Of a DNA stretch of 32,000 nt, positions 3,601-25,185 are shown piece by piece. Within the stretch, counting starts at the first letter, position 1; each line of letters opens with the position of its first letter. Under the pieces are notes generated by a model. The model did no database searches. It had not been told where the DNA came from and worked only from the letters and a program-made list of their open reading frames with translations. Position numbers and translations under genes: made by a program. The DNA is from an uncultured archaeon (GTDB taxonomy: Archaea > Iainarchaeota > Iainarchaeia > Iainarchaeales > DATDZZ01): the NCBI GenBank assembly GCA_964373795.1, contig CAYJVY010000001.1:71537-103536 (forward strand). The letters run 5' to 3'.

Positions 3601-4656
3601 CTCAACTATTTTTCTTAGACAGCCGTCTCCTTCAATATAACCCCTCAAGAATTCTTTTATTGATTCTTTGCTGCTATTCAAGATTTTTTCTGGAATAAAT
3701 TTATTGCCTGCTTTACATTTTCTTAATTCACTTAAAAATTCTTTTGTTGGTTTTTGAAAGATTATTAAGTTTTTAGCTTTAGTAAACCTTGGTTTGTAGT
3801 TAAATCTCTTTTCAATATAGCTTATTAACCATTTTTGAATTGTTTCATCAAAAATTGTTATACTACAAGGATTTGCACAACCTTCTGCTACAAACAACCC
3901 CAAAAAATAAGCATCTTCCTCAGTAACTTCGTTGACTGAGTGATTTAAATCAATTTTTGTAGGTGCACCAATAAAATCTCCTTCTTTTAATAAACCAGTT
4001 GACTTCCATTGAATTCCGTCTTCATTTAATGAAAGCAAAGGATGCTGTTCCGTTAACTCAATTATTCCCCCTCGTTCTGTTTCAATTTTTACAATTTCTT
4101 TAGCAAATTCTTTGTATAGTTTTGAAACTTCTTTTTTTAGTTCTTTACCATTTTTATCTATTCCTATTACTTTAATTGGTTTTTTCAAATCTGCAACAAA
4201 ACCTGAATCAAACTCTTGTTCATTTAAAGCATAATTTTTATAAATTTCTTCAATAGAAGTTAAGTGAACCATGTTTGGATTAAAGTATAAGATTTGAGTA
4301 TTTTTTGCAACACATTTACTCGACGCAAATTTTCCATAAATCTCTGTAATGCTTTGAGATTCAATTCCACCGCCAATTAATTTGTCTACTTCTTTTGAAC
4401 CAGTAGTAATTCTTCCAATTGTTTTTCTTTTCTCTGCAAGCTCTAAAGCAGTATCAAAACCCATTTCCAAAGCATCTCTTGCTGCCTTAATTGCTTTATC
4501 TGCTGTGCCTTCCCCTAAAGAAGCTGCTTCCATTAACTCCATTGGAGAAGCAGTTGCGATTGATTCAAGAGATTTATATCCAGCAGAAAAAAGTTTTTCC
4601 AATGCTTGCGGGCCAATGCCTGGCAAGTCAGCTACTTCTTGAATTTTTTTAGCCAT
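679..4656 (-). CDS. radA: RadA recombinase precursor carrying two inteins (mature extein about 317 aa)
   Basis: N-terminal HhH domain ([25 protein letters not shown]). Split Walker A: YGKFASSK | intein | TQWCFQ. Walker B is [17 protein letters not shown]-terminal core: GGNVVGHA | intein | [16 protein letters not shown] lies 8 nt upstream of the ATG. Confidence 0.9.
814..2289 (-). mobile_element. Intein 2 (492 aa, LAGLIDADG type) inserted after GGNVVGHA in RadA
   Basis: aa 790-1281. Starts with Cys (TGT at 2287-2289; [13 protein letters not shown]). Block B is [20 protein letters not shown] motifs [11 protein letters not shown] and [12 protein letters not shown]. Ends [21 protein letters not shown] (AAC at 814-816), followed by +1 Ser. 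Confidence 0.85.
2767..4314 (-). mobile_element. Intein 1 (516 aa, LAGLIDADG homing-endonuclease type) inserted in the RadA P-loop
   Basis: aa 115-630. Starts with Cys (TGT at 4312-4314; [11 protein letters not shown]). Block B is LTEQHPLL. Two LAGLIDADG motifs ([22 protein letters not shown]). Ends ...[23 protein letters not shown] (AAC at 2767-2769), followed by +1 Thr. Confidence 0.85.
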
Positions 4657-4804: not shown

Positions 4805-6196
4805 TTAAATGAATTTTTTTTCAACTTCTACTTCAGTTGAATTAGGCAAATCAGAGGAAGGCTCATTTGAAGAAGTTTGAGTTAACTCTGTTGAAATAAT
4901 TTCTCTTATAATGAAATCTAATTCTTCTGTTAAATTGTTTTTCTTTACATTTCCTGAAATAGTTATTTGCCGACCAATTAAATTATCTTTCAAGTCATTA
5001 ATTATTTCCTCGGCATCTTTTAATTTTAATTCTTTTAATAAATCTTCTTTTGTCACGCCTAAAAGTTTTTCAGTTAAATCGCCAAAAGCAATGCATTTAA
5101 TTACTCCTGAGCCATCATCTAATTCAATTGCAGAAACAAGTCTTTGTTCAGGAGAAATGCTTCCACATTTCTCGCAAGAAAAAACTCCATCTTCTTCTAA
5201 AACTTTGCCTTTACATTGAGGGCAAACATTGAATAAAAGTTTTGACTTGTTTAAAGAAATAATTGTTCCTGTTAATTCTTTGAATAAATCTCCTTCACTT
5301 AACTTGTTTACTTGAGTTTTCTCTACTTCTTTTTTTACAGAAGATTCAAAGAATTTCAATTCAGGAATTTCAAAATCAATTATTGGTTCAAGTAAAATCC
5401 TTGAACTCCAACCAAGATTTAAGTCAACCGAATTATTTAATCCTTGCTTTGTATAAGCTCCTTCAATTTTAATTATTTGCCCAGGCTTTAAAGATTCAAT
5501 TACCAAAACCAAGTCATGCCAAGCAGTTGCTCTAACTTTTGAGGTTTCGTCTCCTAATTCAAAATTTAATAAAAATGAATCTCCTTTTTCATTTGAAAAA
5601 TTCTTTCTAGGATAAATTCGTAAAACTCGTGCAATTACGTCAACTGAATTAAGGCCTTGCTGTAAGTCCTTAAGTTTCATTATTGGTTCGCGAGAATTTT
5701 TTTGAACAACTATTTTTCCATTATAACCTAGATTTAGTTGAGGTTTTTCATTATATGAGGTTACATAACAATTTTTTAACAAAATAATTGCGCCTTTTTC
5801 AAGTTTTGCGTCCTGCAATACTTTCACGTCTTTATGCCATAAAGTAAGCCTTGTTTCCCCAGTTAAATCTGAAATAATTAAATTGCATAAAGTTCCTTTC
5901 TTGCCTTCTTTTTCAAAAGACTTTGGAGAAAAAACTTGTTTTACTTTCACTTCCAAATCAATGTTATTCATTCCATCTTGCAATTGATTTATTTTAAGTT
6001 TCTCAGACAAATTTTTATCTAAAGATAGTTCAATATTTAAGTCTCTGGCAACCATTAAAGCAGCACCAGAATCAGTTAACAAACCTGAAAATTTATTTTT
6101 TTTCTCCAAAACAAGTTTTTCAACTTCTTCAACTGTTTTCCCTGAAACAGAAGTAATCTTTTGAACAATGCTTTCCTTTGAATCCAATGAAACCAT
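4805..6196 (-). CDS. rpa: Replication protein A / ssDNA-binding protein (OB folds plus zinc ribbon)
   Basis: 463 aa. Archaeal RPA-type N-terminal domain (KITSVSGKTVEEVEKLVLEKKNKFSGLLTDSGAALMVARDLNIEL). Repeated OB-fold pattern (IDLEVKVKQVF...GTLCNLIISDLTGETRLTLW; VDVIARVLRIYP...LLNFELGDETSKVRATAW). C4 zinc ribbon CPQCKGK...CEKCG. Confidence 0.8.
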   Translation of the reverse strand: MVSLDSKESIVQKITSVSGKTVEEVEKLVLEKKNKFSGLLTDSGAALMVARDLNIELSLDKNLSEKLKINQLQDGMNNIDLEVKVKQVFSPKSFEKEGKKGTLCNLIISDLTGETRLTLWHKDVKVLQDAKLEKGAIILLKNCYVTSYNEKPQLNLGYNGKIVVQKNSREPIMKLKDLQQGLNSVDVIARVLRIYPRKNFSNEKGDSFLLNFELGDETSKVRATAWHDLVLVIESLKPGQIIKIEGAYTKQGLNNSVDLNLGWSSRILLEPIIDFEIPELKFFESSVKKEVEKTQVNKLSEGDLFKELTGTIISLNKSKLLFNVCPQCKGKVLEEDGVFSCEKCGSISPEQRLVSAIELDDGSGVIKCIAFGDLTEKLLGVTKEDLLKELKLKDAEEIINDLKDNLIGRQITISGNVKKNNLTEELDFIIREIISTELTQTSSNEPSSDLPNSTEVEVEKKFI

Positions 6197-6253
6197 GTAA
6201 TAATTTTATTCAGAAACATTTTAATTTTAATGCAAAGAAAAACAAAAACTAGT

Positions 6254-6760
6254 TTAATCAATTTTACATGAATTGCAGGAAACGGAAATTCTTTTAGAAG
6301 CAAAATACAATCCAATCAAAATAATTGCAATACTTAAAGCAATTAATTCAAATCTTTTTTCAAGCAATAAACCAATAGTTGTTGCTCCTAAAAATGAAAG
6401 AAAAACATTAATGCATGCAGCACAAGAAGCTGAAGCAAACACTCCTCCAATAACTCCTGAAATAATTCCTGGAACTCCTGAAACAGTACTATTTATTCCT
6501 GGATTTTTTAACCTGAAAAAAATAAATCCTTGCATTACTAAAAGCAGTCCGCTAAGAACTGATAAAAAAAACATTAAAGCAAGCAAGTAAGAAGGAGTAA
6601 TAGCTATTTGAAAAAACAAATCATTTCCTGGAACAGATATTACAGGAATATATAAGTAAATGAAAAAGAAAATTAAAGAAATTAAAATCCAGGAAAAAAA
6701 ATAGTGTGGAAGTTTTACGACTTCAAAAAAAGCTGATTTAAAAAAATTTAATGCAAGCAT
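6254..6760 (-). CDS. Uncharacterised polytopic membrane protein with two CxxC motifs (candidate thiol-disulfide oxidoreductase partner)
   Basis: 168 aa with 4-5 hydrophobic spans. CAAC at aa 113-116 lies between two glycine-rich hydrophobic segments. CNSC at aa 162-165 lies in the C-terminal tail. The gene sits directly downstream, on the same strand, of a membrane-anchored DsbA-like gene. Confidence 0.5.
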   Translation of the reverse strand: MLALNFFKSAFFEVVKLPHYFFSWILISLIFFFIYLYIPVISVPGNDLFFQIAITPSYLLALMFFLSVLSGLLLVMQGFIFFRLKNPGINSTVSGVPGIISGVIGGVFASASCAACINVFLSFLGATTIGLLLEKRFELIALSIAIILIGLYFASKRISVSCNSCKID

Positions 6761-6796: not shown

Positions 6797-7690
6797 CTAT
6801 TCTGCCAAGACATCAAGTGTTTGCTTGAAAGTACTAAAATCTTGGGCTCCAACAAGCAATACAGCTATTTTGCTTTGCTCTTTGTCTTTTACAACAACAA
6901 AAAATTCATCTCTCAATCCTTTTGCCATTAACTTGCTTTTCAAAGCAAATAATTTTGAATCTTTTCCCTGAGTGTCTTTACCAATTAAGTAAAAAGAAGG
7001 TGTTCCATTTACTCCAAATTGATCTCCAACAACTGTATCTTCTTCAACATTTGAAGCAAATTTTCCTGAATCAAGGCATTCATTAAGTTTAGTTGAATCC
7101 ATTCCTGAAATCTTTGCAGCTGCTTGCTTTAAGTCATCTACGCTGAATCTAACTGTTCCAGCTCCTTTAGGGTTTTGCATTTCAAAAATTGCGTCATGCA
7201 TTTCCCAATACTTTCCTTGCTCTCCAGCACATCTAGCTGCTTCAGATCCTTTAGGAGCATCCACATGCCCTAATTGAATCAATGGAAAATCTCTGAAATA
7301 AGCTTTTGCTTTACCACTTGCAACAAATTCTTTTTCTAGTTGAGGATAAACATCATTAAAATGCCTTCTACAAAAAGGGCATTGATAATCTGAAAACTCA
7401 ACTATTTCAAGAGTTGCAGTATTACTTCCTTTCACTGCAGCATATTTTTCAGTTAAAGGCTTTAAACTTAATTCAACTGCTTGATTTGAAGGTGGTGTTT
7501 GAGGTTGAACTTGAGCGCCTCCTTGAGGAGTAGTTCCACTAGGAGTTGAAGGAGTATTTGCTTTAAGAGTAGTTAAACCAGTCAAACCAGTACTAATATT
7601 ATTTCCAACATACAAAATAGTTACTGATAAAATTAAAGTAGCTATAACAATGCTAAAAGGCAATGCATATTTTTCTAAAACATCTGACAT
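6797..7690 (-). CDS. Membrane-anchored DsbA-family thioredoxin-fold protein (CPFC)
   Basis: 297 aa. N-terminal TM anchor (ALPFSIVIATLILSVTILYVG), a P/T/Q-rich linker, then IVEFSDYQCPFCRRHF, plus GVNGTPSFYL (cis-Pro loop), as in DsbA/Thioredoxin_4 proteins. Confidence 0.75.
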   Translation of the reverse strand: MSDVLEKYALPFSIVIATLILSVTILYVGNNISTGLTGLTTLKANTPSTPSGTTPQGGAQVQPQTPPSNQAVELSLKPLTEKYAAVKGSNTATLEIVEFSDYQCPFCRRHFNDVYPQLEKEFVASGKAKAYFRDFPLIQLGHVDAPKGSEAARCAGEQGKYWEMHDAIFEMQNPKGAGTVRFSVDDLKQAAAKISGMDSTKLNECLDSGKFASNVEEDTVVGDQFGVNGTPSFYLIGKDTQGKDSKLFALKSKLMAKGLRDEFFVVVKDKEQSKIAVLLVGAQDFSTFKQTLDVLAE

Positions 7691-7965: not shown

Positions 7966-9171
7966 ATGTATATAAATAGATTTTTAGAAAAGGATTTAGA
8001 GACATGTTTAAATAGGAGAGAAATTATTGGGATAATTGGACCAAGACAGAGCGGGAAAACCACTTTATTGGAACATTTTTTTGAACGTTTGGAGAATGCC
8101 TATTTTTTGAATTTTGAAGACAGAGAAACACTAGAATTATTTAATGAAGACATTAAATCTTTTGCAGAGCTCTATGTTAAGCCTTACAAGTATTTGTTTA
8201 TTGATGAATTTCAATATGCTAAAGAAGGTGGAAAAAACCTAAAATATATTTATGATACTTATAAAACTAAAATTTTTATTTCAGGATCTTCTGCAACTGG
8301 TTTGTCAATTCATGGAATAAAATATTTGGTTGGCAGAATTTTTGTTTTTAATCTTTATCCTTTTTCTTTTAATGAATTTCTTTCATATAAAGAGCCAACA
8401 TTTTACAAAAATATTTATCTAAAAAACAAATTTACAAAACCTATAATTGATAAAATTCTCCCATATTTTAATGAATTTTGCATATATGGAGGGTATCCTA
8501 ACGTTGTTTTATCGCAAAACGATAAAGAAAAGGAAATTGTTTTGCGCAATATTTACAATACCTATTTTCTTAAAGAAATAAAAGAGATTCTTAATATTCG
8601 TGAAGATTATAAATTAAGTAAACTTATTCATGCAGTTTCGTTAAATTTGGGAGGTTTAACTAATTATAATGAATTATCAAATGTGGCTGGTTTTAAGTAT
8701 AAAGAATTGATTGACAATTTAAATATCTTGGAAAAAACTTTTATATCCTTAAAAAGTCAACCTTTTTATATGAATAAAAGAACTGAATTGGTCAAAGTAC
8801 CAAAAATATTTTTCCTAGATAATGGTTTTAGAAATACTGTTATAAAAAATTTTCAACCACTGAAAAACAGGCAAGATAAAGGAGCCTTATATGAAAATTT
8901 TGTTGCTTCAGAGCTTGCAAAAAAGCAAAATGAAATAAAGTTTTGGAGAAGCAAGTCTAAAGCCGAAGTCGATTTTATTCTAGAAAAAAATGGAAAAATT
9001 GTTCCAATTGAGATTAAATCAAATCTTGCAAAACCTGTATTCAGTAAATCTTATGTAAGTTTTCTTGAAAAATATAAACCAAAAAAAGGCTTCATTTTAT
9101 CAGAAAATCTTGTAGCAGAAAAAAAGAAAATAAAATTCAGGCCAATATTTTCAATTGGACAATTAGTTTAG
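7966..9171 (+). CDS. AAA-type ATPase of the AAA_14/DUF4143 kind
   Basis: 401 aa. Walker A is GPRQSGKTT and Walker B is YLFIDEFQY. The C-terminal part resembles the DUF4143 nuclease-like tail (EVDFILEKNGKIVPIEIK). It is the only plus-strand gene between 337 and 12120. Confidence 0.65.
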   Translation: MYINRFLEKDLETCLNRREIIGIIGPRQSGKTTLLEHFFERLENAYFLNFEDRETLELFNEDIKSFAELYVKPYKYLFIDEFQYAKEGGKNLKYIYDTYKTKIFISGSSATGLSIHGIKYLVGRIFVFNLYPFSFNEFLSYKEPTFYKNIYLKNKFTKPIIDKILPYFNEFCIYGGYPNVVLSQNDKEKEIVLRNIYNTYFLKEIKEILNIREDYKLSKLIHAVSLNLGGLTNYNELSNVAGFKYKELIDNLNILEKTFISLKSQPFYMNKRTELVKVPKIFFLDNGFRNTVIKNFQPLKNRQDKGALYENFVASELAKKQNEIKFWRSKSKAEVDFILEKNGKIVPIEIKSNLAKPVFSKSYVSFLEKYKPKKGFILSENLVAEKKKIKFRPIFSIGQLV

Positions 9172-9346
9172 TTTTCCGGTGAACTCGCTCCCATTATTTT
9201 TATGCTGAAAAGAACATCAACTATTTGAAAAACGTCCCTAGGGAAAATTCATATTGATAAAGTAGGTTAAATAATTTACCGGCAAAGACAAATTTTAGAA
9301 GGATTGTTAAAAGAATTCTAAAATCAAACGCTTAGGAATAATGAAA

Positions 9347-10027
9347 TTAGTTAGTGGAATTAACTGCTGCTTCAACCTCTGATCTTAGAGTTCCATAACT
9401 TGAAATTTTTTTTCCATTAACAAAGAAAGTAGGCGTAGAAGTTACATTAAGTTTTGAAACTAAAGTTAAATCTTCTTGGATAACGTTTTGAGTAGAAAAA
9501 TTTTCAATACAAGAATTAAAGGTTCCAGAATTCAAGTTAAGTGATTGCGCATATTCCTTTAATTTTTTTTCAACTTCTTTACCTTGAAGGGAATCCCATT
9601 CCCCAACCTTTCTTTGAGACTCAAATAATTTGTCGTGATATTCCCAAAACTTTCCTTGATTTCCAGCACATTCAGAGGCAATTGCTGCAATAAAAGCATT
9701 TTCATGAATAGAGGTTAAAGGCAAATGCCTGTATTCAAAAACAATTTTATCCTTGAATTCTTGAAAAACCTGTTTAGTTATTGGATAAGCTGCTCCACAA
9801 GCAGGACATTGAAAGTCTGAAAACTCTACAACTCTTACTTTAGCATCTGGATTGCCTTTAAAATTTTTTGAAGCAGGAATTTCAATGTTTTTTGAATCAA
9901 CATTAAAAAAGAATAAAGCAATTGAAGCAATAACTAAAACAAAAAGCAATGCAATTACTATATAAATAAATTTATCAGTTGATTCTTTTTTTTCAACTCT
10001 AAATTTTTCAAAAGATTTTTTACTCAA
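9347..10027 (-). CDS. Membrane-anchored DsbA-family thioredoxin-fold protein (CPAC), paralogue of 6797-7690
   Basis: 226 aa. TM anchor FIYIVIALLFVLVIASIALFFF, then VVEFSDFQCPACGAAYP, and VTSTPTFFVNG (cis-Pro loop). Confidence 0.75.
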   Translation of the reverse strand: MSKKSFEKFRVEKKESTDKFIYIVIALLFVLVIASIALFFFNVDSKNIEIPASKNFKGNPDAKVRVVEFSDFQCPACGAAYPITKQVFQEFKDKIVFEYRHLPLTSIHENAFIAAIASECAGNQGKFWEYHDKLFESQRKVGEWDSLQGKEVEKKLKEYAQSLNLNSGTFNSCIENFSTQNVIQEDLTLVSKLNVTSTPTFFVNGKKISSYGTLRSEVEAAVNSTN

Positions 10028-10045
10028 AAATATTACAACTCCAAG

Positions 10046-10273
10046 TTATTTCTTTTTCTTGTTTTCATTTAAAACAGGTTTATCTTGTAAATGACTTTCT
10101 TGAAAGTCTTCATCAAATTCTTTAATATCTTCTTCATCTAATCCGAGTTCTTTAAGTTTATTTTCATGATCTTTTAAAGTCATTTTATCAAAATCTTTTT
10201 TCCATATTTCAAAATCAGCAGTCATTTTAATATGAGTTCCTTCTACAGGTTTTTGAGGCATTCGTCTAACCAT
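10046..10273 (-). CDS. Hypothetical small acidic protein
   Basis: 75-aa ORF in the same-strand gene run, between the DsbA-like gene and tpiA. No recognisable motif. Confidence 0.35.
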   Translation of the reverse strand: MVRRMPQKPVEGTHIKMTADFEIWKKDFDKMTLKDHENKLKELGLDEEDIKEFDEDFQESHLQDKPVLNENKKKK

Positions 10274-10329
10274 TAAAACACCATAGTTAAGTAATGAATA
10301 ATTAACTTTTTAAATATTAATTCTAATCA

Positions 10330-11112
10330 TTAAACCAACGAAGATTTAACTATTTTAGAAAGACTTGAAGGATTTAAAGAAGCCGATCCAATTAATAAGC
10401 CTTGAATATTTTTCAATGAAGCAATTTGCTTAGAGTTTTCAGGGGAAACACTTCCCCCATAAAGAATTAATATGTTTGCGCCTTTTTTTCCAAAAAAAGA
10501 AATTAATTGTTTTCTAATAATTAAAACTGCTTGACGAATATCTTTAATTGAAGCTGAAAGTTTTTCACTTGAATCTTGGAAACTACTAATTGCATACACT
10601 GGCTCATAAGCTATTACTAGTTGTTCAGAAGAAGAAAGTTTCACTCCTTTAAGGCATTCAATTAATTGAGTTCTTAAAACATTAAAGGTTTGGTTTTCTT
10701 TTTTTTCTTTAAAAGATTCTCCAATGCAAAGAATTGGAATCAGTTTATGCTTTAATGCATTTAAAATCTTTTTATTAATTAATTCATTTGATTCATTAAA
10801 AATAATTCTTCTCTCTGAATGCCCCAATAAAACATATTTTACTCCTAATTCTTTCAACATTAAAGGAGATATTTCTCCAGTGAAAGCTCCTTTGTCTTCA
10901 AAAAACATGTTTTGAGCTCCAAGAAAAACGTTTGGTAAAATAATTGATGAATGAAATGATTCAAGAGAAGTAAAAGAAGGGCAAAAAACTAATTCAATTC
11001 CTGAGGAAAAAAAATTCACAGAAGAATTGGCTTCAACAAATTTATTAAACAAGTTAATTGAATCATCTAAAGTTAAATTCATCTTCCAGTTTGCAACAAT
11101 TAATTTATTCAT
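10330..11112 (-). CDS. tpiA: Triosephosphate isomerase, bacterial/eukaryotic-type (260 aa)
   Basis: IVANWKMN (Asn/Lys), LLGHSERR (His), AYEPVYAI (Glu), YGGSVSPEN, LLIGSASL. Length and N-terminus are of the bacterial type, not the short archaeal TIM type. Confidence 0.8.
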   Translation of the reverse strand: MNKLIVANWKMNLTLDDSINLFNKFVEANSSVNFFSSGIELVFCPSFTSLESFHSSIILPNVFLGAQNMFFEDKGAFTGEISPLMLKELGVKYVLLGHSERRIIFNESNELINKKILNALKHKLIPILCIGESFKEKKENQTFNVLRTQLIECLKGVKLSSSEQLVIAYEPVYAISSFQDSSEKLSASIKDIRQAVLIIRKQLISFFGKKGANILILYGGSVSPENSKQIASLKNIQGLLIGSASLNPSSLSKIVKSSLV

Positions 11113-12120: not shown

Positions 12121-12240
12121 TTAAACAACCTTTAAATGATTAGTAAAAGGAGATTCAAATATTTAATTTTTCCGTTGATTGAAGTAATTTCTGGTAAAAA
12201 TGAATAAAAAGTTAAAAATACAACGTTAAATAATTATTAT

Positions 12241-14133
12241 ATGCTTTCAACAACTCAGGCAAGTGAATTTGATAATTTAGTTAAAACAGTAATGCAATAT
12301 AATGCTTCAATAAACATTAATGCATTCAAAAACGCGTTTAGTTTACTTGAAAAATATAATGCAGTACATTGGAAGACAAAAAAGCCTTTCGTTGAAATTG
12401 ATTTAATTCTAGCAAACATGTTAGCAGATTTAAATTTGGATAGCGCTACAATAATTGCTGCATTATTATATCATCCTTTTATTTATTCAGGGTTAACAGA
12501 AAAAGAAGTTGAGCAAGTTAACTCTGAAAGTAAAAATATTTTAAATAATTTAAAAAAATTCAAAGAATACGAAGAAAAGATTTCAAGCAAAGAAGACTTG
12601 CAAAAACTTGTTCTAGCAATGACTAAAGATCCAAGAATAATTATATTTAAAATGACTAAACAGTTAATGTATTTAAGGCTTGCAAACTTCATTGAACCAA
12701 ATCACATAAAAATTTGTGCTGATGCAGCAATGGAGATTTATGCTCCGATTGCACACAAACTTGGAATAAATAAAATTAAATCAGAATTAGAGGATTTAGC
12801 ATTCAAATACTTACAACCAGATACTTATGAGGGATTAGAAGAAAAAATTACAGCACTTGAAAGAGAAGACAATCTTAAAACAATTAAAAAAATAATGGAA
12901 GACGAATTAGCAAAAAATGAAGTTAATGCAGTTATATTTGGCCGCCCAAAACATATTTTCAGTATTTATAAAAAAATGCAGAGAAAAGAAAAACCATTTG
13001 AAGAAATATATGATTTAACTGGGTTAAGAATAATTTGTGAAACAAAAAAAGAATGCTATGAAATTCTTGGAATAATTCATTCCTTATGGAAACCCTTGCC
13101 AGGAGAATTTGATGACTACATTGCAAAACCAAAACCAAACATGTATCAAAGTTTGCATACAGCTTTAATTGGCCCGGATAAAAGAGTCTTCGAAGTACAA
13201 ATTAGAACAAAAGAAATGGATAAAGTGGCTGAATACGGTTATGCTGCTCATTGGAAATATAAAGGATATAAATCAGACAAAAAATGGGAGAAAAAACTTG
13301 CATGGGTTAAACAAATGATGGCTTGGAGACAAGACTTAAGAAAGTCATCTGAATTTATGGATTCATTAAAATCGGATTTCTTTGAAGACGAAATATTTGT
13401 TTTCACTCCAAAAAGGCAAGTAATTGAATTGCCTCAAGGATCTACTGCGTTAGACTTTGCTTACTCTATTCATACTGAAATAGGACATAAATGCAGTAAA
13501 GCAAAAGTAAACAACAAACTCGTGCAATTAGGATATGAATTGCATTCAGGAGATACGGTGGAAATACTCACTTCTGAAAATCAAGAACCAAAAAGAGACT
13601 GGATTACAATGGTTAAAACAAGCAAAGCTAAAACAAAGATCAGACAAAAACTTCAATTAAAAGCAATTCATAAAAAAGAAGAACAAATTAAAACACTGAA
13701 AAGTTTAGTAATAAAAAAATTAAATGATGAAGACATTAGGTTAGCGAAATGCTGTTTGCCTATTCCAGGAGATGAGGTTTTAGGATATTACACTACTAAA
13801 AGAAAAACAATTGTTCATAGAACTAATTGCGCTAATGCAGGAAAACAAAAAAGCAGTAACAGGTTAATAAGTGTTGCCTGGGATGTAAAAGGCAATGACA
13901 AGTTTTTAACAGAAGTAAGAGTTGAATTTCAAGATACTCCTGGAATGCTATCAGAACTACTTAAAGCATTCTCTAATTCAAATATTTCAATTAAGTCAAC
14001 TGATGCAAAAACAATTGATTCAAATAAGTCAAGAGCAATTTTTACATTTGATGCAAAAAACGTGGAAGAGGTAGCAAAACTAACAGACAAACTTGCAAAA
14101 ATAAAAGGAGTAACATTTGTTGAAAGAGCCTAA
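12241..14133 (+). CDS. Long RelA/SpoT homologue ((p)ppGpp synthetase; hydrolase motifs degenerate) with TGS, CC and ACT-like regions
   Basis: 630 aa. Synthetase motifs: GRPKHIFSIYKKM, DLTGLRII, DDYIAKPKPNMYQSLHT, EVQIRTKEMDKVAEYGYAAHWKYK. TGS: VFTPKRQVIELPQGSTALDFAYSIHTEIGHKC. Conserved-Cys region: CCLPIPGDEVLGYYT...VHRTNC. The HD-domain positions read AALLYHPF instead of AALLHD, and TKQLMYL instead of ADRLHNM. Confidence 0.85.
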   Translation: MLSTTQASEFDNLVKTVMQYNASININAFKNAFSLLEKYNAVHWKTKKPFVEIDLILANMLADLNLDSATIIAALLYHPFIYSGLTEKEVEQVNSESKNILNNLKKFKEYEEKISSKEDLQKLVLAMTKDPRIIIFKMTKQLMYLRLANFIEPNHIKICADAAMEIYAPIAHKLGINKIKSELEDLAFKYLQPDTYEGLEEKITALEREDNLKTIKKIMEDELAKNEVNAVIFGRPKHIFSIYKKMQRKEKPFEEIYDLTGLRIICETKKECYEILGIIHSLWKPLPGEFDDYIAKPKPNMYQSLHTALIGPDKRVFEVQIRTKEMDKVAEYGYAAHWKYKGYKSDKKWEKKLAWVKQMMAWRQDLRKSSEFMDSLKSDFFEDEIFVFTPKRQVIELPQGSTALDFAYSIHTEIGHKCSKAKVNNKLVQLGYELHSGDTVEILTSENQEPKRDWITMVKTSKAKTKIRQKLQLKAIHKKEEQIKTLKSLVIKKLNDEDIRLAKCCLPIPGDEVLGYYTTKRKTIVHRTNCANAGKQKSSNRLISVAWDVKGNDKFLTEVRVEFQDTPGMLSELLKAFSNSNISIKSTDAKTIDSNKSRAIFTFDAKNVEEVAKLTDKLAKIKGVTFVERA

Positions 14134-14165
14134 ACCCTGACTTGCAAGGGAAATTAGAAAAAAAA

Positions 14166-15305
14166 TTATTCATACCTTAATGCTTCAACTGGGTCCATTT
14201 TTGCTGCAACAAATGCAGGGTAAATTCCCGAAAGCACCCCTACTATTACAGCAAAAAAGAAAACTTGTAAAATTAAAAAAATTGTTACAGCAGTTTTCAA
14301 AGCAAAGAAAAAACTTAAAGCAAAAGAAATAAAGCTCCCAAAAAGTATTCCCAAAATTCCTCCAATTACTCCAACAAATAATGATTCAAGCAAAATCAAA
14401 AAAATAATATCTTGATTTGTCCAACCAATTGCTTTTAATGCACCAATTTCTTGAAATCTTTCAAATACACTCATTAAAACAGTATTCATTATACCAATAC
14501 CAGCAACAATTCCAGAAATTCCAGCAACAAAAAAAACAATTAAACGAAAAGAATTAATAAAATCTCCAAACAAAGAAGACAAGTCACTTAAAGTAAAAGC
14601 CTCTGCTTCGGATTCCGAAAAACGAAAATTAAACAAATCAGAAATTTTTTTAGCTTCATCCGGATTGTTTAATCCAACAACAAAGCCTGTAACTTTTTGA
14701 AAAGGAAAATTCAGTAAAGTTCTTGCATCAGATAAATCCATCCAAACACCATAATTCAAAAAACTGCTTGGAGCTTCATAAATTCCAACTATTTCAAAGC
14801 TTTCACCATTCAAATTAATTTTGTTTCCAACAAATTTATCAAAATCTTCAGCTAATTGCTTTCCAATAACTACTGCTCCTTTATCTCCAGGCTTTAAGTG
14901 TCTTCCTTTAATTATTTCAAACACAAATGCAACATTTCCGGCAGAAGAATTTTTTACAATATCATAACCTCCAATTCTGGCGTTTGGAACTAAATTTGAA
15001 GGATTTTTTCCATCAATTGATTTTAATTGGCCTTGAATAAATGGAACTGATTTTTTTACTCCAGAAATTAAATCAATTTTTTGCTCCCAATCAAGTGAAA
15101 TAGAATTAAAAATTGGGTCTGATCCTCCTCGTTGAGTTACTCTAATTCCTTGAATTGAAGAAAAAACATTTGAAACATCTAAAAAAACTCCATCCACAAC
15201 TGAAACTAAAGACATTATTGCTGCAACCCCTACAACAATTCCAAGCAAAGCCAAAAAAGTCCTCTGCTTCCTCCTAAAAATATTCGATAAAGCTAATTTA
15301 AACAA
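14166..15305 (-). CDS. ABC transporter permease, FtsX/MacB-type
   Basis: 379 aa. N-terminal TM (FRRKQRTFLALLGIVVGVAAIMS), a large extracytoplasmic domain, and three C-terminal TMs with GIGIMNTVLMSVFERFQEIGALKAIGW. Confidence 0.8.
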   Translation of the reverse strand: MFKLALSNIFRRKQRTFLALLGIVVGVAAIMSLVSVVDGVFLDVSNVFSSIQGIRVTQRGGSDPIFNSISLDWEQKIDLISGVKKSVPFIQGQLKSIDGKNPSNLVPNARIGGYDIVKNSSAGNVAFVFEIIKGRHLKPGDKGAVVIGKQLAEDFDKFVGNKINLNGESFEIVGIYEAPSSFLNYGVWMDLSDARTLLNFPFQKVTGFVVGLNNPDEAKKISDLFNFRFSESEAEAFTLSDLSSLFGDFINSFRLIVFFVAGISGIVAGIGIMNTVLMSVFERFQEIGALKAIGWTNQDIIFLILLESLFVGVIGGILGILFGSFISFALSFFFALKTAVTIFLILQVFFFAVIVGVLSGIYPAFVAAKMDPVEALRYE

Positions 15306-16022
15306 TTAAACACCTTTACTTTGTTTTTTAAAGCTTGTTTTAACAATTAATCCATCCTTTAAATGAAAACTTTTATTAACAATTGACAAAAAAGATTCGT
15401 CGTGTGAAACAATTACAAAAGTTTTTTTTTCTTCTTGATTTAATTTAAGCATTAAATCAATAATTTTTTGTCCAGTAGCAGAATCAAGATTTCCAGTTGG
15501 TTCATCAGCTAAAATAATGTCAGGATTATTAATTAAGGCTCGAGCAATTGAAACTCTTTGCCTTTGCCCTCCTGAAAGCTGCGAAGGCAAGTGAAACATT
15601 CTATCCTCTAATCCAACTTCTTTTAATAGTTTTACAGCTCGCTCCTCTAATTCATGTTTATTTGCATCAATTGTTTCAGTTGGAATTAAAACATTTTCAA
15701 ATGCATTCAAAGTTGGAATTAAGTGAAAGGCTTGAAAAACAAAACCAATTTTATGTCTTCTAAGCAAAGCCAGTTCATGATCATCTAAATGAGAAATATT
15801 GTGATTATCAATAATTATTTCTCCAGAAGAAGGATGATCTAAAGCTCCAAGCAAATGCATTAAAGTACTTTTACCAGAGCCTGAAGGACCAATAATTACT
15901 ACAAAATCTTTTCTATTAATATCTAAAGAAACTCCTCTTAGAGCAGGAACTTCTACTTCTCCAAGCATGTAAATTTTTGAAATATTTCTTGCTTCAATTA
16001 ATGCCATAAAAATCTTTTCCAA
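15306..16022 (-). CDS. ABC transporter ATP-binding protein (MacB/LolD-like)
   Basis: 238 aa. Walker A is GPSGSGKST, signature is LSGGQRQR, Walker B is [12 protein letters not shown]-loop is SHD. Confidence 0.9.
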
Positions 16023-16028
16023 AAAAAA

Positions 16029-17183
16029 TTAATCCCTTAAAGCCTCAATTGGTTGTAAATTAGAAGCAATCCAAGCAGGATAAACGCCAGAGAATACTCC
16101 AATAATTAATGCAAAAAACAAGGCTTGAAAAACAAGTAAAGGATTAACAACTGAAACCAATCCAAAACTTGTTTTCAAAAAAAATGAAACAATAAATCCA
16201 AGTAAAACTCCTAAAACTCCTCCAAAAAAAGAAACAAACAATGACTCAAATAAAATCATTCTCAAAATATCTATTTTACTCCAACCAATTGCTTTCAATA
16301 CTCCTATTTCTTTTCTTCTCTCAAATACACTCATTAAAACAGTATTCATTATACCAATACCAGCAACAAATGCACTTAAACCTGCAACAATGAATACAAG
16401 AAGACGCAGGTTTCCAAGAATTCCTGAAAACTGAGCAGAAAAATCACTTGCAGTTGAAGCATCTAATTTATCTTTAAAGGAAAAATTAATTAATTGTCTA
16501 ATCTTTACATCTTCATCTGGATTAATTGGTTCAACATAAAAAGAGGAAACCTTATCATTAGAAATATTAAAAAGCTCTCTAGCTGCATCAATATCCATTG
16601 TAATAACTGATTCAAATAAAGGGGAATCGCTTTCATAAATTCCTTTCACAACAAAGTCATTCCCATTAATGTTAAGTTTATTTCCAACAAATTTTTTTAA
16701 ATCATTAGCAATGGCTTTACCAATTACTATTCCTTTTTTATCTCCTGATTGAATTGCCTCTCCTGAAACAATTCTAATAGAATAAACAGGGTTCTTTAAC
16801 TTGAAATATTTTTGCAGTCCGATTCCATAAACACTAATTGTTCCACCAAAAGAAAAAGTATTAGGCTTGCCTTCAATTTGAAAAGGAATTCGCCAAATTT
16901 CTGGAACAACTACTCCTACTCCTGAAACTTTTTCCAGTTTTTCTTCAAAACCAGAATCAATAAATGAAAGAGTATGATCAATGGCTCCATTTTCAACAAC
17001 TAAAACAGATTTAATATTTGAAACAGCTAAATCAAATTCTGATTGCAGGCCATCCACAACTGAAACTAAAGACATTATTGCTGCAACCCCTACAACAATT
17101 CCAAGCAAAGCCAAAAAAGTCCTCTGCTTCCTCCTAAACAAATTAAAAAAAGAAACCCTCCACAAACCAAAAAACCTCCACAA
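16029..17183 (-). CDS. ABC transporter permease, FtsX/MacB-type (paralogue of 14166-15305)
   Basis: 384 aa with the same architecture. It shares the exact peptides FRRKQRTFLALLGIVVGVAAIMSLVSVVDG and GIGIMNTVLMSVFER with the other permease. Confidence 0.8.
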   Translation of the reverse strand: MWRFFGLWRVSFFNLFRRKQRTFLALLGIVVGVAAIMSLVSVVDGLQSEFDLAVSNIKSVLVVENGAIDHTLSFIDSGFEEKLEKVSGVGVVVPEIWRIPFQIEGKPNTFSFGGTISVYGIGLQKYFKLKNPVYSIRIVSGEAIQSGDKKGIVIGKAIANDLKKFVGNKLNINGNDFVVKGIYESDSPLFESVITMDIDAARELFNISNDKVSSFYVEPINPDEDVKIRQLINFSFKDKLDASTASDFSAQFSGILGNLRLLVFIVAGLSAFVAGIGIMNTVLMSVFERRKEIGVLKAIGWSKIDILRMILFESLFVSFFGGVLGVLLGFIVSFFLKTSFGLVSVVNPLLVFQALFFALIIGVFSGVYPAWIASNLQPIEALRD

Positions 17184-17186
17184 AAA

Positions 17187-18422
17187 TCAGTTACTGTTTT
17201 TTGCAAACTTGTTTCTAACAAAATATCTTAAAAGCAAACGCAAAATCAAGTAAACCAATAATAATACAACAGCTAAAACAAGTAATAAAAAAATAGGGTT
17301 TTCAGGAGGTTTTTCATAAACAAATAATTCAATACTTTTTTCTAAGAAAACCTTTTCATCTAATTCATTAAAAAACGAAATAAGTATTTTTGCATTATAG
17401 CTTCCTTGCTTCACTGAAGGCAAAATACTTAAATCAAACAAAGCAGAAGAAGAATCATTTGGATCAATATTTCCTAAAAAAGCATTTTTTGATCCACTAA
17501 ATCCTTCAGGCAAATCAAGTTTTAATTCAACCGCTTTTGCCTTGGTTTTACCAATATTATCTAATTGAATTGATAAAGAAAAATTACTTCCTTGAAGCAA
17601 TTTTTTTTCTTTTGAATTCCCTTGAACACTAAAATCCACTCCACTTAAAACAATTTCAGGTTTATCTTTTACTTCAAAAGAAATTTTTTCAACATCCCTG
17701 TTATTTGAATCCAATTGAGAAACAGTTAATTTATAGTTATAAACTCCTAAAGAAGTTTCTTTTCCTAAAAACAAACTAAAATTAATTTGCCTTGAATCAT
17801 CAATTGAAATATTTCCTAAACGCAAACTATTTTCAGTTAAAGGAATAATATTTCCAAAAGTAGTGAAACCATCCGGCTCTAAAACGACTTGAACATTTCT
17901 TGCTTCAAATGAACCAATATTCTTAACTATGCCATTAATTTTAACAGCATCCCCTATATAGGATGAAACATTGTCAACATTGATATTAGTTAAATCCAAG
18001 GAATAAAATCCTTTAACATCAACTGCAATGTTTTGATCTATTACAAAATTTTTATCATCATCCTCTCTTTTATAAACAATTTTTAATGGAATCGAATATG
18101 TTGAAGGAATAGTTTTTTTACCAACTTTAAATGATAACACCGCAGTTCTAGTTGAATTAGTTGGAAAAAAACCAATCAAATCATTTGATTTAATTGACTC
18201 GAATTCTTTTGGAAAAAAAGAAATCACAGTCAAATTATTGGCAGTAGTTCCAATGCCTCTATTTTTTAAGTCAATTTTAATTGAAACCATGTCTCCAGGG
18301 TAAATAATTGAGGGGTTTAGAGAAGTTGAATCAACCACAATTAAATTAGTTGGAAATTCACTTGTTGCACTAGCAAAAGAAAAAAATAAAACTAAAAAAA
18401 ACAAAAAAAATTGAATTTTCAA
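17187..18422 (-). CDS. Secreted, C-terminally anchored beta-rich surface protein (COG1361/CARDB-like) encoded with the ABC system
   Basis: 411 aa. Signal peptide MKIQFFLFFLVLFFSFASA. Repeated Ig-like segments (PGDMVSIKIDLKNRG; GDAVKINGIVKNIG; NFSLSIQLDNIG). C-terminal TM IFLLLVLAVVLLLVYLIL. It ends 3 nt before the permease start. Confidence 0.6.
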   Translation of the reverse strand: MKIQFFLFFLVLFFSFASATSEFPTNLIVVDSTSLNPSIIYPGDMVSIKIDLKNRGIGTTANNLTVISFFPKEFESIKSNDLIGFFPTNSTRTAVLSFKVGKKTIPSTYSIPLKIVYKREDDDKNFVIDQNIAVDVKGFYSLDLTNINVDNVSSYIGDAVKINGIVKNIGSFEARNVQVVLEPDGFTTFGNIIPLTENSLRLGNISIDDSRQINFSLFLGKETSLGVYNYKLTVSQLDSNNRDVEKISFEVKDKPEIVLSGVDFSVQGNSKEKKLLQGSNFSLSIQLDNIGKTKAKAVELKLDLPEGFSGSKNAFLGNIDPNDSSSALFDLSILPSVKQGSYNAKILISFFNELDEKVFLEKSIELFVYEKPPENPIFLLLVLAVVLLLVYLILRLLLRYFVRNKFAKNSN

Positions 18423-18460: not shown

Positions 18461-19939
18461 TTATTTCTTTTCAGGCCTCATTTGAGGAAACAAGATTACA
18501 TCTCGAATTGTTGAAGAATCGGTTAACAGCATTGTAAGCCTGTCAATTCCTATTCCCATTCCACCAGTTGGAGGCATTCCACACTCCATTGAATTAACAA
18601 AATCAAAATCAATTGGATGATTTTCTCCTTTAACTCTACCAAATTCTTGTTGTTCTTCAAAAATCTTTAACTGAACAATTGGATTATTTAATTCAGAGTA
18701 ACCATTTCCTACTTCCCATCCATTAATGTAAGGCTCTAGTCTTTCAATTAATTCAGGAAATTCTCTGTGAACTTTACACAAAGGAGTTGTTTCTTTTGGA
18801 TGATCAATTACAAAGGTTGGCTGAATTAAATACTCTTCACAAAGTTTTTCAAACAATTTTGCAATTGCAAGCCCTCGAACAAAATCAATTGCAGGCAATT
18901 CAATTTTATGTTCAGCAATTAATTTCTTTAAATCTTCATCAGAGAGTTTATCCACATCTAAGTTAGCATATTTTTTCAATGCATCATACATTGAAATTCT
19001 ATTCCAAGGACTTTGAACATTAATTTCTTTTCCAGCATAAGAAAATTTTAAAGAAGATTTCACTCCTTTCACAACAAATTGAAACAATTTTTCAGTAAAA
19101 TTCATTACATCATTGTAATCCCAATATGCTGAATAAAATTCAAGCATTGTAAATTCAGGGTTATGAGTTTTATCAACATCTTCATTTCGAAAATTCTTGC
19201 AAATAGTGTAAACCTTTTCAAATCCTCCAATAATTAAACGCTTCAAGTAAAGCTCTGGAGAAATAGATAAATAAAAATCTGACTTCCAAGCATGAGATTT
19301 AGTTGTAAAAGGACGGGCATTTGCTCCTCCATAAACTGGCTGCAGTAAAGGAGTTTCCACTTCAAGAAAACCATTTTCATCCAAAAACTGTTTCACTAAT
19401 TTAATAATTTTAGTCCTAGTTTCAAACACTTTTCTAACCTCTGAATTCATAATTAAATCCAAATGCCTTTGCCTATGCCTTAATTCAATGTCTTGCAATC
19501 CATGCCATTTCTCAGGCAACGGAAGCAAAGACTTAGATAAAAAAGTTAACTCTGAAACTAAAACAGTTACTTCCCCCATTTTAGTTTTAAACACTTCTCC
19601 TTTAACTCCAACAAAATCCCCTCTATCCAAGCAATCCTTTAATTTTAAAGAATTCTCTGAAGAAAAACCTTTTTTCACGCAAACCTGAATCTTTCCCTTT
19701 CCATCAACTAAATCAAGAAAAGTTAAACCACCAAAACCTCTGGAAACCATTATTCTTCCACAAACAGATACAATGTCTTTTGTATGCTCGGCAGGACTTA
19801 ATTTAGAATCATATTTTTCATGCAATTCAGAAGAAAAATGAGTTCTAGAAAAACTATAAGGAAAAGGATTCACTCCAAGAGAATTAATTTTCTCCAAATT
19901 TTTTAACTTTGCTTCACGCAAATCTTCAACTGTAGTCAT
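18461..19939 (-). CDS. lysS: Lysyl-tRNA synthetase, class II
   Basis: 492 aa. N-terminal OB anticodon-binding domain. Class II motifs: FRNEDVDKTHNPEFTMLEFY (motif 2) and MPPTGGMGIGIDRLTMLL (motif 3). Confidence 0.9.
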   Translation of the reverse strand: MTTVEDLREAKLKNLEKINSLGVNPFPYSFSRTHFSSELHEKYDSKLSPAEHTKDIVSVCGRIMVSRGFGGLTFLDLVDGKGKIQVCVKKGFSSENSLKLKDCLDRGDFVGVKGEVFKTKMGEVTVLVSELTFLSKSLLPLPEKWHGLQDIELRHRQRHLDLIMNSEVRKVFETRTKIIKLVKQFLDENGFLEVETPLLQPVYGGANARPFTTKSHAWKSDFYLSISPELYLKRLIIGGFEKVYTICKNFRNEDVDKTHNPEFTMLEFYSAYWDYNDVMNFTEKLFQFVVKGVKSSLKFSYAGKEINVQSPWNRISMYDALKKYANLDVDKLSDEDLKKLIAEHKIELPAIDFVRGLAIAKLFEKLCEEYLIQPTFVIDHPKETTPLCKVHREFPELIERLEPYINGWEVGNGYSELNNPIVQLKIFEEQQEFGRVKGENHPIDFDFVNSMECGMPPTGGMGIGIDRLTMLLTDSSTIRDVILFPQMRPEKK

Positions 19940-21571: not shown

Positions 21572-21613
21572 ATACTAAAATAATAAAAAGATTGAAGAAT
21601 TCCTGGTAGAAAA

Positions 21614-21687
21614 CGAGCCTGGGGGGATTTGAACCCTCGACACACGGCTTAAAAGGCCGCTGCTCTACCAGGCTGAGCTACAGGCCC
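21614..21687 (-). tRNA. tRNA-Lys(UUU), intron-less
   Basis: Minus strand reads GGGCCTGTAGCTCAGCCTGGTAGAGCAGCGGCCTTTTAAGCCGTGTGTCGAGGGTTCAAATCCCCCCAGGCTCG. 7-bp acceptor stem, D arm GCTC/GAGC, anticodon loop CTTTTAA, T loop TTCAAAT. Confidence 0.9.
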
Positions 21688-21743
21688 GTTATAAAGGAAA
21701 TAGGTTAACGAAAACAATTTATAACTAATTGTTGAAACAAGAA

Positions 21744-24220: not shown

Positions 24221-24331
24221 AACACAAATAGTTGGACAAAAAAATACAATTCTAAAACCCTTTAAAACCCATTTAAATGCGTAATAAACCAGTTTTATCA
24301 ATATTTTAATATAATACAACCCAAAAATAAT

Positions 24332-24406
24332 AGCGGGGTAGGGCAGTCTGGAGTGCCCGTCGGGCTCATAACCCGAAGGTCAAAGGTTCAAATCCTTTCC
24401 CCGCTA
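24332..24406 (+). tRNA. Initiator tRNA-Met(CAU)
   Basis: AGCGGGGTAGGGCAGTCTGGAGTGCCCGTCGGGCTCATAACCCGAAGGTCAAAGGTTCAAATCCTTTCCCCGCTA. It has an A1:U72 pair and three G:C pairs closing the anticodon stem (GGG/CCC). Both are archaeal/eukaryal initiator hallmarks. Anticodon loop is CTCATAA. Confidence 0.9.
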
Positions 24407-24422
24407 TTAAGGTGTTTGTCGA

Positions 24423-24702: not shown

Positions 24703-24728
24703 ATAATTACGGTCATTATAGTAATTAT
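24703..24728. promoter_or_regulatory. Inverted repeat ATAATTAC-N10-GTAATTAT overlapping the ATG at 24727
   Basis: 8-bp arms with the same core as the 14-bp palindrome 30 nt upstream. Confidence 0.3.
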
Positions 24729-25185
24729 GGTTTTAAATATTTTAAAAAAAACTTTAAACAAAATTGGAAAGTATTTAGTTAGATTTACTGGAAAAGAGGA
24801 CAACACCCATGCTTCCACTATTAGTGACAACTCTAAATCTATATATGAAAAAGAGGAAAAAAAAGAGGAATTTATAGATGAAATTTATTCGATATGGGAT
24901 TATCTAGAGTTTAAGGAAAACACACAAGCATATTATTTGGTTAAGATAATGGGCTTTGAAGAATGGATATCAATGGAAGAGATTAAAAGAAGAATTTTAG
25001 AATTGTTTGGGGTTTCGTTTAAGCATGAAAAAAGCTTATATTCTTATTTAAAAACACTTGTTGATGCAGGGTTGTTGGAGTATTCAAACCATGGTGGGAG
25101 AAGGTTATGGAGAAAAAAGGATTTGATAATTAGACTAAAAAAGAAAAAAGAAAAGTCTTTAACTAGTGAATTACAAATTACTTAA
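24727..25185 (+). CDS. Hypothetical protein with a probable C-terminal winged-helix DNA-binding domain
   Basis: 152 aa. ISMEEIKRRILELFGVSFKHEKSLYSYLKTLVDAGLLEYSNHGGRRLWRK looks like helix-turn-helix plus a wing. No family assignment is possible by eye. Confidence 0.4.
   Translation: MVLNILKKTLNKIGKYLVRFTGKEDNTHASTISDNSKSIYEKEEKKEEFIDEIYSIWDYLEFKENTQAYYLVKIMGFEEWISMEEIKRRILELFGVSFKHEKSLYSYLKTLVDAGLLEYSNHGGRRLWRKKDLIIRLKKKKEKSLTSELQIT

Follow-up and report, generated by a model that had tools for sequence, protein, structure and literature searches.

We asked whether an archaeon can carry an enzyme of the bacterial stringent response and, if so, which of the two opposing activities of that enzyme it has kept. 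The question is raised by one gene in a stretch of 32,000 nucleotides from an uncultured archaeon of the Iainarchaeota (assembly GCA_964373795.1, contig CAYJVY010000001.1, positions 71,537 to 103,536 of the forward strand), hereafter called the window. The gene encodes a long RelA/SpoT homologue (RSH), a member of the family that makes and degrades the guanosine tetra- and pentaphosphate alarmones, (p)ppGpp. We consider it probable that this RSH is a monofunctional (p)ppGpp synthetase that has lost its hydrolase, and that it has been inherited vertically within a clade of DPANN archaea following a single old transfer from bacteria. The coordinates, strand and ATG start of the gene agree with the first-pass annotation of this DNA, and the strings quoted there (GRPKHIFSIYKKM, DYIAKPKPNMYQSLHT, EVQIRT, AAHWKYK, AALLYH and TKQLMYL) are all found in the translation. 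The gene and its domains, all on the forward strand, are as follows.

12241..14133, forward strand: long RSH, complete open reading frame (ORF) from the ORF list, ATG start, 630 residues plus stop.
12241..12825, forward strand: pseudo-hydrolase (HD) domain, residues 1-195; HD_4, 58.5 bits; predicted fold kept, catalytic site lost.
12826..13350, forward strand: alarmone synthetase (RelA_SpoT) domain, residues 196-370; PF04607, 152.9 bits; intact residues, EFDD motif.
13378..13581, forward strand: TGS domain, residues 380-447; Pfam TGS, 75 bits; residues of the tRNA CCA-end pocket kept.
13582..13737, forward strand: AH/core remnant, residues 448-499, one long helix and a linker; from the alignment gap, the model and the absence of PF19296.
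13738..13890, forward strand: zinc-finger or ribosome-intersubunit (ZFD/RIS, conserved-Cys) domain, residues 500-550; PF28438 RelA_RIS.
13891..14130, forward strand: ACT/RRM domain, residues 551-630; Pfam ACT_4, 47.8 bits.

The whole protein behaves as a long RSH. It scores 560.7 bits with the NCBIfam model TIGR00691 (spoT_relA), whose cutoff is 499.2, and Pfam places HD_4 (residues 38-176) before RelA_SpoT (residues 234-343), the order expected of the long enzymes, with TGS (residues 385-444) and ACT_4 (residues 552-629) in the C-terminal half. It falls short of both equivalog models, reaching 407.4 bits with the RelA model NF008124 (cutoff 728) and 446 bits with the SpoT/bifunctional Rel model NF008303 (cutoff 947). 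A small alarmone synthetase of the YjbM/RelQ type was ruled out, the protein having several domains and only 40.7 bits with NF053588, against a cutoff of 320. Among solved structures the best sequence match is the Rel of M. smegmatis (8fr8, E=2.6e-129), and the closest bacterial sequences are Rel proteins of Clostridia, at 45-47% identity; these rank after a set of archaeal proteins, the short forms, to which we return below.

What remains of the two catalytic sites is very different. For the hydrolase, residues were numbered as in RelSeq (1VJ7), the reference having been checked against 1vj7_A, to which it aligns without gaps over positions 1-348 with mismatches only at non-catalytic positions. 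At R44, K45, Y50, H53, H77, D78, E81, D82, D144, N148 and T151 the window RSH has W, K, F, I, Y, H, I, Y, K, Y and L, respectively. All four Mn2+ ligands (H53, H77, D78 and D144) are replaced, by I, Y, H and K, the catalytic pair E81-D82 has become I and Y, and N148 is a Y, so that the signature of a bifunctional Rel/SpoT enzyme is absent. The dead domain is nonetheless predicted to retain its fold, since the N-terminal half of an AlphaFold2 model (23-sequence alignment, mean pLDDT 80.6, pTM 0.52) superposes on the catalytic fragments of Rel in 7oiw, 5xnx and 1vj7 with a target TM of 0.81-0.87, at about 3-4 Å.

The synthetase site, in contrast, is kept. Each of the 12 catalytic residues audited in the window RSH is in place (R241, K243, K251, D264, R269, K304, N306, Y308, H312, E323, Q325 and R327), and the 11 synthetase residues that were checked over the full set of 70 short forms are present in every one of them. 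Positions 295-298 read EFDD, which is the charge reversal of the EXDD type. This motif is found in 50 of the 70 short forms, whereas the long bacterial relatives (700 residues or more) recovered by the same homology searches have RFKD in 116 cases out of 116. Sajish et al. (2009) associate EXDD with RelA enzymes that are monofunctional and prefer GDP to GTP (PMC2666561). By analogy, GDP would be the favoured acceptor of the window RSH, because its EFDD fits this rule. EXDD together with the loss of HDxxED (H77Y, D78H, E81I and D82Y) is the combination known from RelA, and we read it as a functional likeness rather than as orthology. Indeed, the score with the RelA equivalog model is far below its cutoff; the window RSH is therefore not an orthologue of RelA and the resemblance is convergent. 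The loss of the hydrolase parallels that of proteobacterial RelA and arose independently.

The manner in which the hydrolase was lost can be followed in the relatives of the window RSH, which divide into an HD-intact group and a hydrolase-degenerate subclade. In the HD domain, members of the degenerate subclade have a pairwise identity of 0.30, as against 0.59 for the HD-intact archaeal clade, while the corresponding values are 0.53 and 0.60 for the synthetase domain and 0.62 and 0.66 for TGS; the ACT domain is also fast-evolving (0.32 against 0.50). Moreover, the catalytic HD positions are replaced differently from one member to the next and some members keep a partial set, such as P0007, with H53, H77, D78 and E81. 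Replacements this varied and partial, in a domain of such low identity, suggest that selection on hydrolysis has been released under a remaining structural constraint on the fold. To judge from the identities in the HD, synthetase and TGS domains, the relaxation is specific to the HD domain. Hydrolase loss is also recurrent in archaeal RSHs, since at least three more independent lesions of E81/D82 occur within the otherwise intact clade, in P0152, in P0157 and in the group formed by P0158, P0160, P0165 and P0167.

The regulatory half has kept three of its elements, TGS, RIS and ACT, and the AH/core domain has been cut to one helix. In the TGS domain, H411 aligns with His432 of E. coli RelA and is invariant in our alignment A1, and the RelA pocket residues Phe409-Pro411 and Val461-Ile463 (PMC5291266) match FTP 388-390 and VEI 440-442. 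The zinc-finger residues C504, C505, H526 and C530 are invariant in all short forms (70/70) as well as in all long forms (116/116). The ACT domain finds its fold match in 3ibw, the corresponding domain of a GTP pyrophosphokinase from Chlorobium, with a target TM of 0.87. The deletion itself is visible in several ways. When the window RSH is aligned with M. smegmatis Rel, the query passes from 494 to 500 while the 8fr8 chain passes from 567 to 662. In an alignment of 168 sequences, about 80 residues that correspond to positions 480-558 of the Caloranaerobacter Rel (P0174), the body of AH/core, are missing from all 70 short forms. The Pfam family PF19296 is absent from the protein while PF28438 is present, and in the AlphaFold2 model a single helix (461-483) separates TGS from the zinc-finger domain.

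These results allow the first-pass annotation to be assessed. Its statements that the hydrolase signatures are lost and the synthetase motifs intact are borne out by the audit against RelSeq, in which no synthetase residue is missing. Its description of a complete long-RSH architecture is accurate for the pseudo-HD, synthetase, TGS, conserved-Cys and ACT domains and has to be amended for AH/core, which is largely deleted. The RelA-type monofunctional synthetase that it suggested stands as a predicted function, given the dead HD domain and the intact synthetase, and falls as a statement of orthology.

Our proposal for the function of the window RSH is as follows. With ATP as the pyrophosphate donor and the 3'-OH of GDP or GTP as the acceptor, the enzyme would produce (p)ppGpp, as its residues predict. 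One old transfer from Bacteria to DPANN archaea would have founded a clade that was then marked by the loss of the approximately 80 residues of AH/core and by the exchange of RFKD for EFDD. Most members of this clade still look bifunctional from their residues, and in the sublineage of the window, where relatives carry the labels 'archaeon' or 'Candidatus Diapherotrites archaeon', this site has decayed, the HD fold probably being kept as a scaffold for an enzyme without hydrolase activity. Synthesis would be switched by uncharged tRNA, sensed through the TGS-ZFD-ACT region either on the archaeal ribosome or away from it. For the removal of (p)ppGpp, the cell would depend on an enzyme that is not an RSH, or else on a small hydrolase whose own gene lies in another part of the genome. 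By analogy with (p)ppGpp biology in bacteria, the alarmone would have to act in the archaeon on conserved GTPases and on purine enzymes, and not on RNA polymerase.

An active synthetase could also make another product, pGpp or (pp)pApp, or answer to another control, independent of the ribosome, with a ligand bound to ACT or else a partner protein as the switch. Indeed, the AH/core deletion is clade-wide and takes away the geometry with which the bacterial enzymes bind the ribosome, the zinc-finger and ACT domains have strongly diverged from their bacterial counterparts, the archaeal ribosome is unlike the bacterial one, and enzymes of the EXDD type also make some pGpp (PMC2666561). We nevertheless regard this alternative as rather unlikely. 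The guanine-stacking Tyr308 is conserved together with K304, N306 and H312, and both the CCA-end pocket of TGS, including the His432 equivalent, and the Cys and His residues of the zinc finger are invariant. This conservation argues for guanine nucleotides as the retained substrates and for uncharged tRNA as the retained signal.

The protein might, on the other hand, be a pseudo-enzyme in which neither site works, kept as a tRNA- or ribosome-binding regulator or as a scaffold. Such a role would agree with the fully eroded hydrolase site, with the rapid evolution of the ACT domain in the degenerate subclade and with the catalytic loop 290-299, which is of low confidence in the AlphaFold2 model. 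However, the retention of the synthetase residues in all 70 short forms extends to a wider sample. A hidden Markov model search of 1.84 billion cluster representatives gave, among the best 150 at 50% identity, 37 AH-reduced representatives, for part of which an archaeal origin is established. The hydrolase site is eroded in 19 of these 37, and the synthetase sites are kept in all of them, save for one N306S. Moreover, the synthetase domain of the degenerate subclade is nearly as conserved as that of the HD-intact clade, at an overall divergence of up to 60%. Residues kept despite such divergence point to purifying selection on catalysis, and make a pseudo-enzyme quite improbable.

Where, then, does the gene come from? 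The nearest homologues of the window RSH are 611-635 residues long and 52-41% identical to it, and NCBI labels them, where a label is given, 'archaeon' or 'Candidatus Diapherotrites archaeon'. A profile search enlarged this group to the set of 70 short forms of 611-663 residues, with at least 70 clusters at 90% identity. The full hydrolase signature is intact in 50 of the 70, against 116 of 116 long bacterial matches. In the HD-intact group (P0052, P0145, P0154 and 53 others), 50 of 56 keep RHHDEDDN and so look bifunctional. The assignment of this group to the archaea was made from neighbouring genes, which encode aIF2-gamma, ribosomal protein S6e, aIF5B, Orc1/Cdc6, archease/RtcB, diphthamide synthase and a SAMP/UbaA/NcsA set. 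Altogether, the context is archaeal at each of the ten loci inspected, namely the window and nine related ones.

The phylogeny is in agreement with this picture. A neighbour-joining tree was built from 168 sequences and 638 columns, gap filtering having removed the AH columns, and Dayhoff-6 recoding was used to damp the A/T-driven bias in amino-acid composition. The short forms are monophyletic in 99 of 100 bootstraps, in 100 of 100 when the HD columns are left out, and in 86 of 100 after recoding. The HD-degenerate subclade, 14 sequences with the window RSH among them, is recovered in 100, 100 and 99 of 100 replicates, respectively. In a tree of the HD domain alone the clades are lost, with bootstrap values of 5-9/100, which is no surprise for a domain that has decayed. 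As for the donor, neighbour joining puts the archaeal clade beside a group with Deltaproteobacteria-type, Acidobacteriota and Gemmatimonadota sequences, and the raw distances are smallest to Clostridia. With its AH/core deletion, its place in the tree and its archaeal context, the window RSH belongs with the short forms of DPANN archaea; it is a member of a large monophyletic clade that is vertically inherited in archaeal genomes.

Some other sequences met in these searches deserve mention. In nine representatives of 648-684 residues (P0207, P0210, P0223, P0231, P0239, P0241, P0263, P0322 and P0324) AH is partly reduced, the hydrolase is intact and the motif is of the RFKD/RIKD type. These nine may represent intermediates from bacteria, or else the lineage from which the archaeal clade received its gene. 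The top profile match, P0003 (968 residues, an ENA contig), was set aside; it is a bacterial Rel in which residues of about 240-472 are duplicated in tandem within the protein, probably an assembly artefact. A contig scan with the degenerate patterns of alignment A1, aimed at genomes with two RSH paralogues, gave 80 loci among the matches listed, all of them bacterial.

The genome that carries the gene is archaeal on both sides of it. The window encodes a RadA with inteins, a single-strand-binding protein of the RPA type, aTrm56 and TFE-alpha, and these markers flank the RSH gene left and right. Its G+C content is flat (0.23-0.36), and the RSH gene has a third-position G+C content of 0.20 and a codon usage that correlates with that of the other window genes at r=0.926, among the highest values in the window. 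The gene order around RSH recurs in four independent archaeal contigs from metagenomes or metagenome-assembled genomes of different projects. The elements found again across these contigs are TIM (triosephosphate isomerase), DsbA, the MacB-ABC cluster, RadA and the SerRS-aTrm56-TFE block. In L001 (GCA_043816965.1, 'Candidatus Diapherotrites archaeon'), RSH is followed by the same MacB cluster as in the window. In L002 (JGI 3300033145), RadA is followed at some distance by two DsbA genes, TIM, a transporter, RSH and a MacB-ABC-MacB-CARDB series. In L088 the genes close to RSH are those of a class I LysRS, SerRS, aTrm56 and TFE-alpha, and L090 (GCA_040755695.1) has an intein-bearing RadA, DsbA, TIM, RSH and a class II aminoacyl-tRNA synthetase. 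The gene has thus been resident for long enough to be fully ameliorated and to have acquired a conserved synteny. A bacterial relA-like gene misjoined to an archaeal contig in assembly or binning, an idea invited by the overwhelmingly bacterial make-up of the family and by the Clostridia Rel proteins that come next after the short forms, is hardly credible and in effect excluded, because the codon usage and third-position G+C content are native, the G+C profile is flat, archaeal informational genes stand on both sides within the same 32 kb, the same neighbourhood exists in the four independent contigs, and the closest homologues bear archaeal labels at NCBI.

Here the first-pass annotation held up in most respects. 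The informational neighbours are archaeal and the codon usage is native, as it had said, a chimera is excluded by codon usage and synteny, and the tree groups the protein with archaeal short forms and not with bacterial sequences. The horizontal acquisition that it had considered is right as to the ultimately bacterial origin of the gene; the tree and the synteny show a vertically inherited clade, so that the acquisition was neither sporadic nor recent.

Several points weigh against a vertically inherited, monofunctional synthetase controlled in the manner proposed. On the bacterial ribosome, AH/core bridges TGS and the zinc-finger domain; this element is deleted in the window RSH, and activation of the bacterial type may therefore be impossible. 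In E. coli, a synthetase without a hydrolase is toxic, as seen in relA+ spoT-null strains, and the 32-kb window holds no gene for a substitute hydrolase, whether of the HD, Nudix, GppA/Ppx or Mesh1-like type. Furthermore, tests for (p)ppGpp in archaea, namely Haloferax and Sulfolobus, were negative (PMC10249747). These two are without an RSH gene. The tree of 168 sequences is a neighbour-joining tree only, and the bacteria nearest to the archaeal clade differ between this tree and the raw distances. Finally, the AH-reduced representatives of 648-702 residues with RFKD-type motifs may not be archaeal; one of them, P0239, lies on a contig of only 2.6 kb.

Genes of possible interest for alarmone turnover were noticed at other RSH loci. 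In L088 a CYTH (triphosphate tunnel) gene at 6150-6686 on the reverse strand lies 1.4 kb downstream of a hydrolase-degenerate RSH, which is only a lead, and in L086 two stand-alone HD-domain genes (16400-18084, reverse strand) lie 4.5-6 kb downstream of an HD-intact RSH. These are possible candidates for alarmone-turnover enzymes. In L090 the region 12556-17893, about 2.7-8 kb from a hydrolase-degenerate RSH, contains the genes for GMP synthase (guaA), a phosphoribosyltransferase, purD, purF and purA. Purine enzymes are classic targets of (p)ppGpp in bacteria, and this proximity may be a coincidence.

Upstream of the RSH gene lies the following region.

12121..12240, no strand assigned: intergenic region flanked by the divergently oriented CorA and RSH genes, A/T-rich by direct reading of the sequence.

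Reading by eye, we found no Shine-Dalgarno sequence in 12121..12240, and a TATA-like box, TTAAAAAT, at 12212-12219, about 22-29 nucleotides upstream of the ATG; it is a putative promoter element of the RSH gene. A scan for sigma-70 and terminator consensus sequences around the gene gave no excess over shuffled sequences, sigma-70 being the wrong promoter model for archaea.

The other genes of the window complete the description of the locus. Two DsbA-like thioredoxin genes (6797-7690 and 9347-10027, both on the reverse strand) lie near RSH, as such genes do in L002, L085 and L090 and hence in both RSH subclades; at the HD-intact loci L085 and P0154 a DsbA-like gene is directly adjacent and convergent to RSH. 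This linkage may be ancestral or functional. On the other side, 14166-18422 (reverse strand) encodes a MacB-type permease, an ABC ATPase, a second MacB permease and a CARDB protein, convergent to RSH and in the same position in L001 and L002. The TIM gene (10330-11112, reverse strand) encodes 260 residues covered end to end by Pfam TIM, and the syntenic proteins of L002 and L090 have 222-223 residues, so the window gene may have replaced the usual one or belong to another type of TIM. The RadA gene (679-4656, reverse strand; 1325 residues) is split by intein splicing and LAGLIDADG homing-endonuclease domains; the RadA orthologue of L002 is intein-free, with 315 residues, and that of L090 has an intein. 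A class II tRNA synthetase of the Asp/Lys/Asn type (18461-19939, reverse strand) stands near RSH as it does in L090, while L088 has a class I LysRS (8980-10653), though its RSH is of the same subclade as that of the window. Further along are two tRNA genes, at 21613-21688 (reverse strand) and 24331-24407 (forward strand), and a gene for a tyrosine recombinase of the Xer type (26304-27146, reverse strand), about 2 kb from a tRNA-Met(CAT). By the recombinase gene are ORFs without a Pfam match, at 24727-25761 and 27238-30422, and this region could be an integrated element.

How much of this was known? The first-pass annotation had called long RSHs absent or rare in archaea, and part of the literature agrees. 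The reference classification of RSHs has no archaeal long form (PMC3153485), its 2020 update leaves archaea unmentioned in its text (PMC7229694), and a 2023 review and a preprint of February 2026 hold (p)ppGpp signalling to be not described in archaea or absent from them (PMC10249747, PMC12934967). By contrast, in the DPANN survey of Li et al. (2021, mSystems), RelA/SpoT genes, with an inferred bacterial origin, are reported from 69.0% of the genomes in Diapherotrites, 41.7% in Woesearchaeota, 21.3% in Pacearchaeota and 19.0% in Nanoarchaeota (PMC8407392). The claim of rarity thus reflects the RSH literature and the archaeal reviews, and does not hold for a lineage in which more than two-thirds of the genomes have the gene. 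The genes of that survey are most likely of the same family as the window RSH. The presence of the family in DPANN archaea was therefore known already, which limits the novelty of our finding. In its available text, the survey records presence alone and does not mention hydrolase loss, the AH/core deletion, EFDD or the split into HD-intact and degenerate forms. Likewise, the literature we retrieved makes no mention of the AH/core deletion, of EFDD in bifunctional-looking enzymes or of a hydrolase-dead subclade.

What is described here is a clade with a structural signature of its own, the AH/core deletion combined with EFDD. It raises the questions of whether archaea make alarmones, how a factor of the bacterial ribosome would be activated in an archaeal cell and how a synthetase-only enzyme is tolerated; the short forms are also a natural experiment on the need for the AH/core domain. 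We speculate, tentatively and with rather more doubt than we attach to the enzyme itself, that DPANN archaea run a genuine alarmone response. A bacterial RSH would have been re-tooled by the AH/core deletion for archaeal tRNA and ribosomes, the Diapherotrites-like lineage would have turned it into a pure synthetase whose product is cleared outside the RSH family, and (p)ppGpp would have conserved GTPases and enzymes of purine salvage as its targets, in place of RNA polymerase.

The window RSH can be compared with three known kinds of enzyme. E. coli-type RelA, of Beta- and Gammaproteobacteria, shares with it the dead HD fold, the intact synthetase, EXDD and the TGS, zinc-finger and ACT domains, and ribosome-bound RelA (5iqr) is the best full-length fold match of the model. 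It differs in that the window RSH is without about 80 AH/core residues, has an archaeal host and groups with the archaeal short forms; no SpoT-like partner was seen in the window. The bifunctional Rel proteins of Firmicutes and Actinobacteria (RelSeq 1VJ7, B. subtilis 6YXA, M. smegmatis 8FR8) have the same domain order and synthetase chemistry. Unlike the window RSH, with its EFDD and 630 residues, they have an active HD domain (HHDEDDN), RXKD, a full AH/core and a length of 715-797 residues. The HD-intact archaeal short forms share the clade, the AH/core deletion, in most cases EFDD, and a DsbA gene nearby. They differ from the window RSH in the hydrolase signature RHHDEDDN, which 50 of the 56 have kept and the window RSH has lost.

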